Below are positions 69-4,948 of a DNA stretch of 64,000 bases, one piece after another. Made by a program: the position numbers and the translations under genes. The DNA comes from Desulfobacterales bacterium. Its GTDB lineage: Bacteria > Desulfobacterota > Desulfobacteria > Desulfobacterales > UBA5616. The stretch is taken from the NCBI GenBank assembly GCA_046483495.1, contig JAWODC010000049.1, positions 1 through 64,000 on the forward strand, given 5' to 3'. Within the stretch, counting starts at the first letter, position 1. Every line of letters begins with the position of its first letter. The notes beneath the pieces are model-generated. The model ran no database searches and was not told the DNA's origin. It saw only the letters and a program-made list of their open reading frames with translations.

Positions 69-1085
69 CTAAACCGCCTGCGGAATCGGTTGCCGGATAA
101 GACAGACCACTGTGTTCTGAATGGAAGACGACTCATTCACGTTATGCATCCCGGCCGTTCGGGGGGCAAATCGACGGAAGAAGGTTTTCGGGTGAATTCC
201 GGGAAACCTGTAAACCGCCAAACCAACGGTTTTTTCATCGATTTCCGGCGCAGGCGGCTCCGGGGGCGTCACTCCGGAGACGTCCTGCGATTCGGCCGAA
301 TGTTGCAGCAGCCCTTCCAGTGCCTTGCTAAAGATCATCATTTCGTGATTGTTATTGTTTCGGACCGGCACCGGCGAAATATGCCATAGAGGAGCCGGCG
401 GCTTTTCCGCTGTGTCCCGGTTTTCCAACAAATGGGTGATGACGCTTGTACTGTCTGTGGCATAAACCGTATATTCTTCGGGGTCATTCAAGTGGAGTAT
501 CGACCAGGACCGCATCCGCTCCGATACCATGTACTCGCCCAAATCCGCCTGCGCATCACCTCGGCCGGCAGATAAAAGCCGCTCGAGTTTTTCCGGCTCT
601 CCTTTCAATCCGTCATATAGATCCTGTTCCATTTGCTCGATAGTCATCAGTCTGTCCATTGCGGTGATTTCCTGGGCATCATGCTCTTGTGCCAATGCCA
701 GAAACAATCGAGCGACAAAAACATCGTCAACGGGGGTCTCTGTTGGAGCCTCCGCCCCGATTCTTTTTTTTATGTCCGCCTTTATTCTCGACACCGCGGT
801 GTCACTGTAAAAGGGAACGGGGCTGCGGCGGGCCGTTAGAAAAGCCGTGGATCGGTCATCATGGATATTCGCCCAGTTTTTGTATGCTTTCAATACTGAC
901 GCCAGCCGATCTTCATCGCCGGAAACCGGCGTTTTCACGTATACGGGCTGGTCTTCCCCGGAAAGGGAAACATCGTTTTCGGTGGCATATCCAATACCGT
1001 ATACCACGGTTTGGGAGAAAAACGAGTTCAGCCGTTTGGCGGCTTCAGCCGACAGGGTCGTAAATGGAAAATATAACGATTTCAT
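69..1085 (-). CDS. Hypothetical protein (338 aa)
   Basis: Long ORF whose ATG overlaps the stop of the upstream cysK-cysS fusion (ATGA, 1082-1085); no recognisable motif. Confidence 0.75.
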   Translation of the reverse strand: MKSLYFPFTTLSAEAAKRLNSFFSQTVVYGIGYATENDVSLSGEDQPVYVKTPVSGDEDRLASVLKAYKNWANIHDDRSTAFLTARRSPVPFYSDTAVSRIKADIKKRIGAEAPTETPVDDVFVARLFLALAQEHDAQEITAMDRLMTIEQMEQDLYDGLKGEPEKLERLLSAGRGDAQADLGEYMVSERMRSWSILHLNDPEEYTVYATDSTSVITHLLENRDTAEKPPAPLWHISPVPVRNNNNHEMMIFSKALEGLLQHSAESQDVSGVTPPEPPAPEIDEKTVGLAVYRFPGIHPKTFFRRFAPRTAGMHNVNESSSIQNTVVCLIRQPIPQAV

Positions 1086-3367
1086 GACATTTCATCTAAT
1101 TTTGGATCCAGCAAGGTAATGCCCATGGATTTGAGCTGATCACGTATCTGGTCGGCGCGTTCGAAATTTTTTTCTGTCCGCGCCCGGTTTCTTTCGGCGA
1201 TCAGTGCCTGTACATCGGATCCCGGTGGTGTATCTGAAAAGTCAAATACTTGCAGTACGGCATCGATCTGTTTGAAGGCGTCTACGATTTTGAGTGCATC
1301 CTGACCGTTGATGCAATGGTCCGAAATCAAATGGTTTACCTGACGCACCTTTTTAAAAATCGATGCTAGTGCAGCGGAAACATTGAGATCGTCGTCCATA
1401 GCGGCAATAAATCCGTGGCGGAGGTCGTAGATGATCTGGTCCAGCTCATCCAATGGAGGTGCCTGGGCATCCAGACGCATCAGGGTCTGTATTACCTGAT
1501 CGAATCGCCGCAATCCGCGGGCGGCATTGTCCAGACGATTTTTGGAAAACGTCAACGGTTTGCGATAATGCCCGGACAGAAGCCAATACCTCACCTCCCT
1601 GCCCGAGTACCCTGAATGATAGAGCGTTTCCAAGGTCAACCGGTTGCCGTTTTCCCCGATCTTTTTGCCGTTTACCAGGACCCGTTCGCAATGGATCCAA
1701 TACCTTGCCGGAATTTTTCCGGTGACAGCCCGGGCGATGGCGATTTCATTCTCGTGATGGGGAAAAACCAATTCGCGGCTGCTCGCGTGGATATCATAGG
1801 TTTCACCCAAATATTTCATCGCCATGGCGGCACATTGAATGTGCCACGACGGCCGGACATTTCCCCACTGGGTTTTCGAGAAAATCCCCCGTCGAAGTTC
1901 GGACAGCTTGGTTCGCTTGAACAAGGTGAAATCACGAGGATTATCCTTTTCATAATCATCTAAATCGACAGTGGCGCCCACCCTTATCTTGTCGATATCG
2001 ACGCCTGAAAGCCGGCCGTAATCGGAAAACCGGGATATGTCGAAGTACAGCGATTTCAACTTTTCATAGGCATATCCCTTCTCAACCAGTTTTCGGGCCA
2101 TCCGGATCATATCGTCGACATGTTCACTGGCTTTGGGGTAATGATCCGCCGGTTTGATGCGAAGTGATTCAAGATCTTCCATGAACGCCCGAACATAATG
2201 CCGGGTAAATTCCGGCAAATCGATGCCTGCTTTTTCAGAGCCTTGAATCGTTTTGTCGTCCAGGTCGGTGACATTCATGACATGCTTGACCGAAAGGCCG
2301 CGATATTCAAGATACCGGCAGAGCAGATCGGAAAAGACGAATCGACGACACTCGCCCAGGCCCATTCTGGCGTGAACGGTGGGTCCGCAGGAGTATACGG
2401 ACACCTTGTGGGGCGTTATGGGAACGAAGGTCTCTTCGGTACGCGACAGGGTGTTGAACAGCTTCAATCCGACTTTTTCTTTGACGGCAAAAAGCGGCGT
2501 ACTTAAGTACCGTTCCCCGCCGTCCGGCAATATGACCACCAGCGTGCCCCTGTCCATCCGGCGCGCCTGTTTTATCGCGGCAAACATTGCGGCCCCGCTG
2601 CTCATCCCTACAAAAAGCCCTTCCTCTTTGGCCAGTTGCCGGGCGGTTTCGTAAGCATCTTCATCATCGATGTTGATGATGTTATCCAATCTTTTTTTTT
2701 CGTAAATTTCAGGGACGTATGCTTCTTTCATATTTTTGAGGCCCTGAATTTTGTGCCCCAGGTACGGCTCCACGCCGATAATGTGAATGTCAGGGGCCAA
2801 TTCCTTCAGTCGCCGGGACAACCCCATCAGGGTGCCTGTTGTTCCCATGGTCGCTACAACGGCGGAAAGGCGGCCCCCGGTTTGACGCCAGATTTCTTCG
2901 GCAGTGCCATGATAATGAGCCTTCCAATTGGCCTCATTGTTAAACTGATCCGTCATGAAATACCGATCGGGGTTCTCGCGGGCCAGGCGATAGACTTCCT
3001 CGATGGCGCCGTCCGTCCCTAAGTGGCCGGGTGTCAGAAGGATTTCGGCGCCCCTGGCTTTCAAGATTTTTTGGCGTTCCAGGCTGGCGGCCTCGGACAT
3101 CACCAGCAGCAGCCTGTAATTTTTAACGGAACAGACCAGCGCCAACCCGATGCCCGTGTTGCCGCTGGTTGCCTCGATGACGGTTTTGTCAGGTGTGAGT
3201 TTGCCGGAGGCCTCTCCGGATTCAATCATGTAAAGTGCCGCACGGTCTTTTATGGAGCCGCCGGGATTGAGATATTCAACCTTGGCGAATATCGTAATAT
3301 CGGGGTTTGGGTTTACTTTCCGAATTTCGACCAGCGGTGTATTTCCGATGGTGTCTAATATTGACAT
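1082..3367 (-). CDS. cysS: Cysteine synthase (PLP, CysK/CysM-like) fused to a cysteinyl-tRNA synthetase-like domain
   Basis: N-half has NPGGSIKDR (PLP Lys), TSGNTG, GTTGT, GMSSGA and PDGGERYLST. C-half has LFNTL, YSCGPTV, NVTDLDDK, RPSWHIQC, FPHHENE, MDDDLN and ADQIRDQL. Start taken at ATG 3367 (MSILDTIG); 3373 is possible. Confidence 0.92.
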   Translation of the reverse strand: MSILDTIGNTPLVEIRKVNPNPDITIFAKVEYLNPGGSIKDRAALYMIESGEASGKLTPDKTVIEATSGNTGIGLALVCSVKNYRLLLVMSEAASLERQKILKARGAEILLTPGHLGTDGAIEEVYRLARENPDRYFMTDQFNNEANWKAHYHGTAEEIWRQTGGRLSAVVATMGTTGTLMGLSRRLKELAPDIHIIGVEPYLGHKIQGLKNMKEAYVPEIYEKKRLDNIINIDDEDAYETARQLAKEEGLFVGMSSGAAMFAAIKQARRMDRGTLVVILPDGGERYLSTPLFAVKEKVGLKLFNTLSRTEETFVPITPHKVSVYSCGPTVHARMGLGECRRFVFSDLLCRYLEYRGLSVKHVMNVTDLDDKTIQGSEKAGIDLPEFTRHYVRAFMEDLESLRIKPADHYPKASEHVDDMIRMARKLVEKGYAYEKLKSLYFDISRFSDYGRLSGVDIDKIRVGATVDLDDYEKDNPRDFTLFKRTKLSELRRGIFSKTQWGNVRPSWHIQCAAMAMKYLGETYDIHASSRELVFPHHENEIAIARAVTGKIPARYWIHCERVLVNGKKIGENGNRLTLETLYHSGYSGREVRYWLLSGHYRKPLTFSKNRLDNAARGLRRFDQVIQTLMRLDAQAPPLDELDQIIYDLRHGFIAAMDDDLNVSAALASIFKKVRQVNHLISDHCINGQDALKIVDAFKQIDAVLQVFDFSDTPPGSDVQALIAERNRARTEKNFERADQIRDQLKSMGITLLDPKLDEMS

Positions 3368-4014
3368 GTGCATGTGGCAAGTACCTTTAATATTTCGTTC
3401 CAAACCCCGTCTTCATTTTGGGATGCATCGATAATTCTGAATCTGCGGGGTTCGGCGGCGGACAGCGTCAGATACCCCTCCCGGACGCACTGGTGAAAAT
3501 CGATTTTTTCTTTTTCGAACCGGGTTTCCCCGTCGGGGCGGTCCCCGGAGTGCACGGCATGCCAGGCCCTTTCAAGTCCGATTTTCGGGGGCAGGTCCAA
3601 AAGAAAGGTTATATCAGGCTTCCGATCTTCCAATATCACGTGGTGAAGTGCGGCAATCAGATTCATATCCAGCCCTCTGGCATGTCCCTGATAGGCGAGG
3701 GTGGCATCGAAAAACCGGTCACAAACAACGGTTTTCCCGCTTTTCAATGCGGGACTGATGATTTCCCGGACATGCTGCGCCCGATCCGCCATATACAGAA
3801 GCAGTTCCGTCATGGGATCCATTTGGTGGTTTTCGGCATCCAACAGAATGGACCTGATTTTTCGGCCGATCGCCGTCCCCCCGGGTTCACGGGTGGTGAT
3901 GCATGTCCGTCCCTCACGGGTGAAATAATCAACCATTCGTTTCATCAGAGTGCTTTTGCCGGATCCTTCGATGCCCTCAAGGGTGATAAATAGTGCCCGC
4001 TTATCGTTTTGCAT
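3355..4014 (-). CDS. tmk: Thymidylate kinase
   Basis: FITLEGIEGSGKST P-loop, TREPGGT, CDRF, LAYQG; start moved to ATG 4014. Confidence 0.95.
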   Translation of the reverse strand: MQNDKRALFITLEGIEGSGKSTLMKRMVDYFTREGRTCITTREPGGTAIGRKIRSILLDAENHQMDPMTELLLYMADRAQHVREIISPALKSGKTVVCDRFFDATLAYQGHARGLDMNLIAALHHVILEDRKPDITFLLDLPPKIGLERAWHAVHSGDRPDGETRFEKEKIDFHQCVREGYLTLSAAEPRRFRIIDASQNEDGVWNEILKVLATCTCQY

Positions 4015-4948
4015 AAAATTGTCTTTCCAGCAACCGGTGATAGGGTGTCCAGTTTTCTCCGGATACTTCGGATTCCATGAATTCCCGAACACCGTTTACC
4101 TTGGCATCGATTTCATCGATATAATTCAGCAGTATGGCTTCGATGGTTTTCGGGGGCTCGGGGGATCCGAACTCGCGTGAACCGTGATGACTTACGATCA
4201 TGTGCTCGATCAGCTGCTCCGTTTCCGCGGGGAATTGCCGTAGAGTCGCGATTTTTTCCCGAACCATAAGAACACCGATGACGATATGGCTCAACAAGCG
4301 CCCCTCATCTGAATAGTCGATTGCGGTTGAATACGTCAATTCCCGAGTTTTTCCAATATCGTGCAAAACAGCACCGGTGATCAGCAGCTCCCGATCGACA
4401 CCGCCGTAATGACCGGCTGTTTTTTCCGCCAAAAGCGCTGTTGAGAGGGTGTGTTCGAGCAGCCCTCCCAGGTAGGCGTGGTGCATTTTTTTGGCGGCGG
4501 GTGCCGTCTTAAACCGGTTTACAAACTCGGCATCCGCGTAAAAAGCCTCGAGCAAGGACTTCAGGTGAATATTTTCAAACGTGTTCGAGATCTGCCGGAG
4601 CCGCTCGAACATTCGCTCGATGTCCCGGTCGGTGGACGGCAAAAAATCCGAAGGGTCGACATCTTGGGCATCGCAAGGCGAAAGAACCTTTATAACCAAT
4701 TGGGGGGCCCCCCTGTACTCGGAGATGCTTCCCGTTAATCGAACGTAATCGCCTGATGCAATGGTGTGGCCGATCTCGTCCACACCGTCCCACATGACAC
4801 CCTTCAGAGAACCGCTCTTATCCGAAATCGTGACGGACAGATAACAGTTGCCGTCTTTTTTGTGGGATATCATCTTTTCGGCCAACACAAAAATGTCCTC
4901 GACGACATCCCCGGCTTTCATATCTTTTATAAAAACAGTTTTCATCAT
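4001..4948 (-). CDS. YhaM/Cbf1-family 3'-5' exoribonuclease (OB fold + HD domain)
   Basis: N-terminal OB-fold-like region, APAAKKMHHAYLGGLLEHT, LHDIGK, SHHG, YIDEID. Confidence 0.9.
   Translation of the reverse strand: MMKTVFIKDMKAGDVVEDIFVLAEKMISHKKDGNCYLSVTISDKSGSLKGVMWDGVDEIGHTIASGDYVRLTGSISEYRGAPQLVIKVLSPCDAQDVDPSDFLPSTDRDIERMFERLRQISNTFENIHLKSLLEAFYADAEFVNRFKTAPAAKKMHHAYLGGLLEHTLSTALLAEKTAGHYGGVDRELLITGAVLHDIGKTRELTYSTAIDYSDEGRLLSHIVIGVLMVREKIATLRQFPAETEQLIEHMIVSHHGSREFGSPEPPKTIEAILLNYIDEIDAKVNGVREFMESEVSGENWTPYHRLLERQFYAKR

Follow-up and report, generated by a model that had tools for sequence, protein, structure and literature searches.

Why would a bacterium keep an apparently intact cysteine synthase fused to a cysteinyl-tRNA synthetase (CysRS) that has lost its ATP-binding motifs? 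The question is raised by one gene in the window analyzed here, the 64,000 nucleotides at positions 1 to 64,000 of the forward strand of contig JAWODC010000049.1 (GenBank assembly GCA_046483495.1), from a Desulfobacterales bacterium of the UBA5616 lineage. The gene is a single open reading frame (ORF) of 761 amino acids on the minus strand, window positions 1082-3367, with its ATG at 3367. It represents a real and apparently undescribed system in which a conserved pseudo-synthetase is coupled to a cysteine synthase that is probably independent of CysE (serine acetyltransferase).

The first-pass annotation of this DNA, made from the sequence alone, read the ORF as an intact pyridoxal 5'-phosphate (PLP) cysteine synthase running in frame into a CysRS-like domain, and Pfam and NCBIfam agree with this reading. 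Pfam places PALP at residues 4-282 and tRNA-synt_1e at residues 314-616, followed by DALR_2 and CysS_C; the fusion passes the NCBIfam cut-off for cysKM (TIGR01136; 368.9 versus 344.15 bits) and, as a whole protein, that for cysS (TIGR00435; 374.1 versus 340). The AlphaFold2 model of the fusion (116 sequences) has a mean predicted local distance difference test score (pLDDT) of 90.7 and a predicted template modeling score of 0.74, and matches the CysRS structures 8QHP and 1U0B along with CysK and CysM; the template modeling scores of the pseudo-CysRS fold are 0.91 to 8QHP and 0.85 to 1U0B.

Translation of the ORF bears out the reported replacement of HIGH by GLGE, DIHGGG by DIHASS and KMSKS by KIGEN. 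The region of the first conserved cysteine and HIGH reads CGPTVHARMGLGECRR, with C327 encoded at 2387-2389 and GLGE at 2351-2362; DIHASSRE replaces DIHGGGKD at 1772-1795, so that GGxD reads SSRE (1772-1783). The metG gene in the window has HLGH and KMSKS, as had been claimed. Further invariant CysRS residues are changed in this protein (hereafter, the query), namely the W of LWK, the G of GRPGW and the E of WHIEC, the altered positions besides the ATP motifs being W483, G504, G507 and E511, and the terminal GTxW hairpin is absent from its lineage.

To place these changes, 148 full-length fusions (142 genome loci, the query and 5 cluster representatives, with partial loci omitted) were compared with 84 canonical CysRSs picked by HIGH-like and KMSKS-like motifs. 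Degeneracy is a family-wide trait: none of the 148 fusions combines HxG[H/N], GGxD and the second lysine of KMSKS. The G[G/A]xD motif is found in 2/148 fusions versus 83/84 canonical CysRSs, and the LWK tryptophan (the W483 position) in 0/148 versus 84/84. Losses of the last HIGH residue, of GGxD and of the second KMSKS lysine are near-universal; that of the first HIGH histidine is lineage-specific, with the residue retained in 82 fusions. Decay is graded, with HLGN plus KMSRS still present in some fusions (L118, L140, L171 and P0122), HxGE without KMSKS often seen in Desulfobacterales and none of the motifs left in others, and the KMSKS loop is hypervariable. Given that the three defining motifs (HIGH, KMSKS and GGxD) fail, the fusion, by its sequence, does not belong to the cysteine--tRNA ligase family, and the label 'cysteine--tRNA ligase' that most named relatives carry is probably wrong for the degenerate forms. 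Two candidate changes were dropped: the acidic residue that follows the 'HNG' histidine, considered as blocking the pocket, is Glu in 30% of canonical enzymes, and the new cysteine pair C340/C560 is conserved in just 60% and 51%, respectively.

Chance or assembly error as the source of the degenerate motifs is excluded because the same domain is found in 119 close homologues and in 28 of 30 genomes of the same order (two as contig-end fragments only), and its recurrence across relatives also excludes strain-specific decay. Within the phylum, the in-frame fusion is present in 120 of 301 genomes (our own included; two partly matched), beyond which one fusion is frameshifted (G267) and one is ended by a contig edge. 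The named carriers are mostly Desulfobacterales, joined by Desulfopila, two Acidobacteriota, Thermodesulfobacterium, Desulfofervidaceae and Desulfovibrio ferrophilus.

A canonical cysS with HIGH and KMSKS is encoded on contig C7 of the same genome (G000), and a canonical copy was likewise found in 116 of the 119 other carriers: 113 match the genome's cysS at E 1e-140 or better (motifs read in 4), and 3 have an intact HIGN-type CysRS. The remaining three are one carrier with a frameshifted canonical CysRS (G066) and two drafts without a full-length copy (G174, G164); all 10 single-contig carriers have a canonical CysRS, and 29 of the 30 same-order genomes have a second, canonical-scoring one. 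The fusion as sole CysRS was rejected: G174 and G164 are 95% complete drafts, the latter with a tail-less paralogue only, and the fusions of G164 and G066 lack the zinc cysteines. Thus, family-wide degeneracy together with a separate canonical cysS lends good sequence support to the suggestion that the domain may no longer charge tRNA. The genome's single tRNA-Cys(GCA) carries U73, and no tRNA genes were found within the window.

Other CysRS-like genes came to light in the same searches. The genome has a third one (G000 C27:77659-78900; L202:4651-5916, plus strand), which encodes 421 amino acids, lies upstream of an ABC exporter pair and forms a long branch in the tree. Its motifs are the mirror image of those of the fusion, with HLGN, TGG and KMSKS intact, WHIEC changed to WNIQD, HHENE changed to HHDYT and the anticodon tail absent; this protein is possibly a ligase for another substrate. 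P0166 (858 amino acids) apparently contains two tandem CysRS-like domains, and L216 (G151:C422) is a HIGN-type CysRS with a C-terminal extension that we take to be glycosyltransferase-like. A tRNA-Sec is also encoded in the genome (G000 C46:184058-184155).

The ligand-binding parts of the pseudo-CysRS are retained in the query as the first-pass annotation had it, both the four zinc ligands (C327, C512, H537 and E541) and the anticodon-binding C-terminus. Alignment to 1LI5 equates the query's anticodon-binding residues with R423, R427, W432, D436, R439 and D451 of E. coli CysRS, among which we take R423 and D451 to be anticodon-domain residues. Five polar residues were scored (E. coli R423, R427, D436, R439 and D451), and all five are retained in 142/148 fusions versus 69/84 canonical CysRSs. 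Positions 427, 432, 436 and 439 are named as anticodon contacts in the available part of PMC13449415. Both zinc cysteines are lost in 16/148 fusions, all of which retain at least 4 of the 5 anticodon residues; conversely, in three loci with split forms (L257-L259) the pseudo-CysRS, of 424-427 amino acids, stops before the anticodon tail and keeps the zinc ligands and the connective-peptide signature described below. The loss of one or the other ligand site in certain lineages points either to two inputs converging on a single interface or to a scaffold. Separately, the fusions of one clade (L120, L124, L126, L128-L132, L135) are extended at the C-terminus by a Cys-rich stretch (such as LCTQCSQKEARCPE), and their last helix contains a Cys.

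The pooled ratios of nonsynonymous to synonymous substitution rates (dN/dS) for 26 close pairs, with some dS near saturation, are 0.073 for the synthase, 0.087 for the catalytic and connective-peptide part and 0.154 for the anticodon part. Identity to relatives is closely similar for the pseudo-domain and real CysRS (61 versus 62% for G028, 57 versus 58% for G010). Low dN/dS and retained residues indicate that the CysRS half is under strong purifying selection and is maintained rather than decaying. The fusion thus displays the traits of a pseudo-enzyme, with catalytic motifs lost, a canonical synthetase elsewhere and the domain under purifying selection.

The PLP half, judged by its residues, is catalytically intact. 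The PLP-binding Lys40, TSGNT loop, Q141, GTxGT and S256 are intact in the query, and K40, S68-G69-N70-T71, Q141, G175-T176-x-G178-T179 and S256 are invariant in 148/148 fusions. It is the genome's only cysteine-synthase-like gene (tblastn) and scores under the cysM and cysK equivalog cut-offs. The alignment at K211 is gap-free to 3DWG and 2BHS (residue numbering from 3DWI), and the position it shares with Arg220 is presumably the phosphate or thiosulfate determinant; the lysine at this position in the Trichomonas enzyme (Lys214) is, we assume, what confers phosphoserine use. The spacing of 171 between the PLP lysine and K211 equals that of K36 and K207 in the Trichomonas cysteine synthase (PMC3773994, in the part available).

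Neither cysE nor metX was found in the genome, which is 96.7% complete, and serA and serC are present. In the phylum, cysE-like genes occur in 57/120 carriers versus 140/181 other genomes, and are absent from 8/10 single-contig carriers and from 40/42 carriers without a second scored synthase, with three candidates per genome scored and kin genomes not being independent. The routes to cysteine through O-acetylserine and CysE and through O-phosphoserine and SerC are both stated in the accessible text of PMC9855970. The K211 alignment, the gene content of the genome and the cysE distribution together make O-phosphoserine the likely substrate of the synthase half, and we hold this with fair confidence. 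Among related proteins, stand-alone QGLKN synthases (L226, L228, L230-L235, L240) share a conserved CxxCPP tail, possibly a redox, metal or persulfide element, and some synthases and fusions have N-terminal extensions (L014, 955 amino acids; P0155). The part of P0155 ahead of its QGLKN synthase looks ParB-like to us (DGHHR motif) and is presumably reminiscent of a serine kinase.

In addition to what it has lost, the family has acquired conserved features of its own on both halves. The connective-peptide (CP) signature comprises YEK..S.YF and an insertion, G.TVDL..Y.K..P.DF.L.KR..L.ELK.G, that is absent from canonical enzymes; the near-invariant residues of the pseudo-CysRS (R342, E435, K436, S439, T466, D468, Y472, P477, R485 and the L.ELK.G insertion) are mostly in this region. 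On the synthase, A66, E123, Y126, R130, Y217 and K224 are present in 85-100% of the 148 fusions and in less than 30% of a set of 16 archaeal intact fusions and 20 stand-alone synthases, with E123, Y126 and R130 spaced i, i+3, i+7 on a helix (114-131) of the model. A metagenome search with an unfused pseudo-CysRS yielded 80 loci, of which 66 are fused, 13 are split and 1 is ended by a contig edge. In 13/13 split loci the synthase gene is directly upstream of the separate pseudo-CysRS gene, and the split synthases keep E123 and Y126 in 12/12 covered cases and Y217 and K/R224 in 13/13.

Complex prediction with two synthase copies and residues 298-640, a setup unlike that of the calibration jobs, gave a score of 0.56, versus 0.00 for the best of 3 controls, with at least 90% of contacts shared between runs and a partner pLDDT of at least 83. 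In the calibration, the mark was reached by 116/157 solved complexes and 2/215 mismatches. Because scores of 0.60 or lower were those of just 18/157 solved complexes and of both passing mismatches, the predicted contact between synthase and pseudo-CysRS is weakly supported.

The degenerate domains form one clade (Shimodaira-Hasegawa-like approximate likelihood ratio test support 98) inside the HIGN-type CysRSs, apart from their hosts' own cysS. Intact-motif synthase-CysRS fusions, assigned where named to Nanoarchaeota, Nanobdellota or Woesearchaeota, comprise 18 full-length proteins and one fragment (P0124, P0294-P0311; e.g., MFW6014224.1). H[I/V]GN, TGG and KMSKS are all intact in the 18, which are possibly active bifunctional enzymes. 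Archaeal and bacterial fusions are separate in a quick tree, and in the synthase tree fusions and stand-alone synthases are intermixed; a single origin of the archaeal and bacterial fusions is not rejected (approximately unbiased test, p 0.68; constrained tree 11 log-likelihood units higher), the constrained clade including one unfused protein that falls within the archaeal group. The earlier idea of a channel that couples cysteine synthesis to translation has less in its favor where the form is degenerate, given that a domain unable to adenylate cannot receive cysteine for charging, and may fit the intact archaeal fusions.

The gene order around the fusion is surE - HD-domain nuclease - tmk - fusion - hypothetical protein, with overlapping stops and starts; the name surE is our assignment from its motifs. 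Almost none of the distant locus set has tmk or the hypothetical gene, and the two therefore look like lineage synteny outside the system. The 338-aa hypothetical protein has no match in Pfam, NCBIfam or Atlas and was dropped as an obligate partner, being absent from distant loci and lacking a family match. The coordinates of the fusion, its parts and its neighbors are collected in Table 1.

Table 1. Features of the fusion gene and adjacent genes, in window coordinates
Feature	Position	Strand	Evidence or remark
Fused cysteine synthase and pseudo-CysRS, 761 aa	1082..3367	-	ORF, Pfam, NCBIfam, AlphaFold2 model, fold matches
CysM-type PLP cysteine synthase domain, residues 1-295	2483..3367	-	Catalytic residues intact
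Synthase helix face E123/Y126/R130 (with A66, Y217, K224), candidate interface to pseudo-CysRS	2978..3001	-	Conservation
Lys211 in QGLKN	2735..2737	-	Invariant 148/148; aligned to Arg220 of O-phosphoserine sulfhydrylase CysM and Arg210 of E. coli CysM
Pseudo-CysRS domain, residues 301-755	1103..2467	-	Pfam, residue alignments, fold match
Degenerate HIGH position, GLGE	2351..2362	-	HxG[H/N] in 6/148 fusions
CP region with family-specific signature	1853..2077	-	R485 in 100%, T466 in 95% of fusions
Zinc/cysteine site C512, H537, E541 (with C327 at 2387-2389) and degenerate GGxD	1745..1834	-	Residue alignment
Degenerate KMSKS position, KIGEN	1649..1663	-	Second Lys in 1/148; KMS[K/R]-like in 18/148
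Anticodon-binding residues R726, R730, F735, D739, R742, D754	1106..1192	-	Alignment to 1LI5
tmk (thymidylate kinase)	3355..4092	-	Stop overlaps fusion start; upstream neighbor in 58/113 loci
338-aa hypothetical protein	69..1085	-	Start overlaps fusion stop; downstream neighbor in 54/113 loci, Desulfobacterales-like only

Considering that sulfide is presumably abundant and the CysE feedback step missing, control would have to sit on the synthase itself. We regard it as moderately likely that the CysRS half is a regulatory pseudo-synthetase, in the manner of HisZ or GCN2, that couples the CysE-independent synthase to cysteine or tRNA-Cys status. The synthase would make cysteine from O-phosphoserine (via SerA and SerC) and sulfide, and would thereby avoid serine acetyltransferase, where feedback normally acts. 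The dead CysRS would still bind cysteine at the zinc and tRNA-Cys through the GCA anticodon, and would dock on the synthase helix (E123/Y126/R130), probably via the remodeled CP region. Docking would switch the synthase; in the simplest scheme, cysteine or charged tRNA-Cys would inhibit it and uncharged tRNA-Cys would activate it (the sign is a guess), with tRNA charging left to the separate canonical CysRS. The CysRS zinc site is described as cysteine-selective in the available part of PMC7373986. A more specific version can be put forward tentatively, in which the charging state of the cognate tRNA exerts direct and specific control over a bacterial metabolic enzyme: the dead class I synthetase would recognize the anticodon of uncharged tRNA-Cys and thereby activate O-phosphoserine sulfhydrylation, and occupation of the zinc by cysteine or Cys-tRNA-Cys would shut it down. 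In this version, the whole would have arisen from an active fusion like the DPANN survivors. A bolder variant, in which the PLP half acts on aminoacyl-tRNA-Cys itself, appears improbable.

Several observations weigh against this regulatory interpretation. The genomes counted are kin rather than independent, and the HIGH and KMSKS counts in the canonical set follow by construction from the way it was picked. The zinc site is not universal, with all four ligands present in 93/148 fusions versus 82/84 canonical CysRSs, and no anticodon tail was found near L257-L259. At the putative interface, the R130 position is D or E in 12/12 covered split synthases; the complex prediction was a weak pass and yielded no residue contacts; and covariation between the halves (mutual information with average product correction; 318 sequences, effective number 137) was dominated by phylogeny and uninformative. 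As to the substrate, 57 carriers do have a cysE-like gene, and K211 is not proof of O-phosphoserine use because E. coli CysM, an O-acetylserine enzyme, has an arginine there (Arg210). Finally, with the zinc ligands incomplete in many fusions and the anticodon tail gone in L257-L259, the CP signature is the sole constant feature of the pseudo-CysRS, a pattern that also fits a structural subunit.

Such a structural or tethering subunit, which would stabilize or constitutively activate the synthase, or keep it near tRNA-Cys and the true CysRS, with no sensing involved, is the best surviving alternative, albeit an unlikely one. It accords with the CP signature and the synthase patch being the only features kept in every lineage, with the loss of the zinc cysteines in 16 fusions and of the anticodon tail in 3 loci, and with the adjacency of the split forms. 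However, close QGLK[N/S] relatives of the synthase occur on their own, with no partner, and a scaffold would not need anticodon residues that are more conserved than in working CysRSs. Somewhat less likely again is tRNA-linked chemistry, whereby Ser-tRNA-Cys or phosphoserine-tRNA-Cys would be presented to the PLP half for SepCysS-like conversion to Cys-tRNA-Cys, or Cys-tRNA-Cys or a persulfide would serve as sulfur or cysteine donor. The CP region, which in CysRS holds the tRNA 3' end, is remodeled and conserved, the anticodon readers persist and the synthase seems adapted to phosphoserine; against this, SepRS was not found in the 96.7% complete genome (best TIGR00470 match 24 bits versus a cut-off of 381), nearly all carriers have a canonical CysRS, the TSGNT loop that holds the substrate's free carboxylate is intact, and three loci lack the anticodon tail.

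The other alternatives fare worse. A residual ligase, with weak charging or an MshC-like cysteine ligase activity, could be reconciled with the four fusions that have HLGN plus KMSRS, the passed TIGR00435 cut-off and the intact archaeal fusions, but hardly with the changes of the query at all three ATP motifs, W483, G504, G507 and E511 or with the family-wide hypervariability of the KMSKS loop, and we consider it quite improbable. Still less credence can be given to a role at the RNA level, where the domain, through its conserved anticodon readers, would bind a tRNA-Cys-like mRNA element and regulate sulfur genes independently of the synthase: the overlap of its start with tmk leaves the gene without its own leader, and the patch on the synthase speaks for coupling between proteins. 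The idea that a redundant fused cysS is decaying neutrally, despite differences among lineages in how the ATP motifs decay, one frameshifted carrier (G267) and two truncated ones, can be counted as refuted by the dN/dS of 0.09-0.15, identity equal to that of real CysRS and open frames across the phylum.

If the CysRS half is indeed a regulator, this would account for cysteine synthesis in the many sulfate reducers that lack serine acetyltransferase, and for its limitation under abundant sulfide in the absence of the usual feedback enzyme. It would also add a class I member, possibly one reading a specific tRNA, to the short list of synthetase-derived regulators. Because intact, half-decayed (HLGN/KMSRS), fully decayed and split forms coexist, the change from enzyme to regulator is directly testable. 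No description of the fusion was found in the literature searched, which left subscription journals and supplements outside its scope, nor is it mentioned in the available parts of PMC2922099, PMC5424206, PMC9506716 and PMC7311316; no paper on the archaeal intact fusions was found in that literature either.

The fusion shares the fold, zinc ligands and anticodon residues of class I CysRS (TIGR00435; 8QHP, 1LI5/1U0B), with the pseudo-CysRS coming from the HIGN-type branch, but lacks HIGH, GGxD, KMSKS and the LWK tryptophan, has a conserved CP insertion, is fused to a synthase and coexists with a canonical copy. The CysM-type synthases (the O-phosphoserine sulfhydrylase CysM, 3DKI/3DWG, and the Trichomonas and E. 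coli enzymes) have the same short substrate loop and a basic residue at the K211 position, whereas the pseudo-synthetase partner and the surface patch are specific to the fusion, for which the substrate is a prediction. The SepRS-SepCysS pathway likewise unites a PLP enzyme, phosphoserine and tRNA-Cys (PMC5424206, PMC7373986, in the parts available), but employs another PLP family, and SepRS was not detected in this genome. The archaeal intact fusions have an identical domain order, near-identical linker length and a QGLK[N/S] synthase, and differ in their intact ATP motifs and in lacking both family-specific patches.

For the proposed function, the closest parallels are pseudo-synthetases. 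HisZ has a regulatory, non-catalytic role and no anticodon domain. Like the pseudo-CysRS, it is an aminoacyl-tRNA synthetase paralogue associated with the pathway that makes its cognate amino acid (PMC7373986, available part); the pseudo-CysRS, in contrast, is of class I rather than class II, is usually fused, keeps its anticodon domain and would act on the last step. The HisRS-like domain of GCN2 is a pseudo-synthetase in the same chain as an enzyme that it activates on uncharged tRNA (PMC4335047, available part), although GCN2 is a eukaryotic kinase and the domain has a class II fold, whereas the fusion keeps tRNA-Cys-specific readers and its output would be a metabolic enzyme. The pseudo-CysRS probably works like HisZ or the HisRS-like domain of GCN2.

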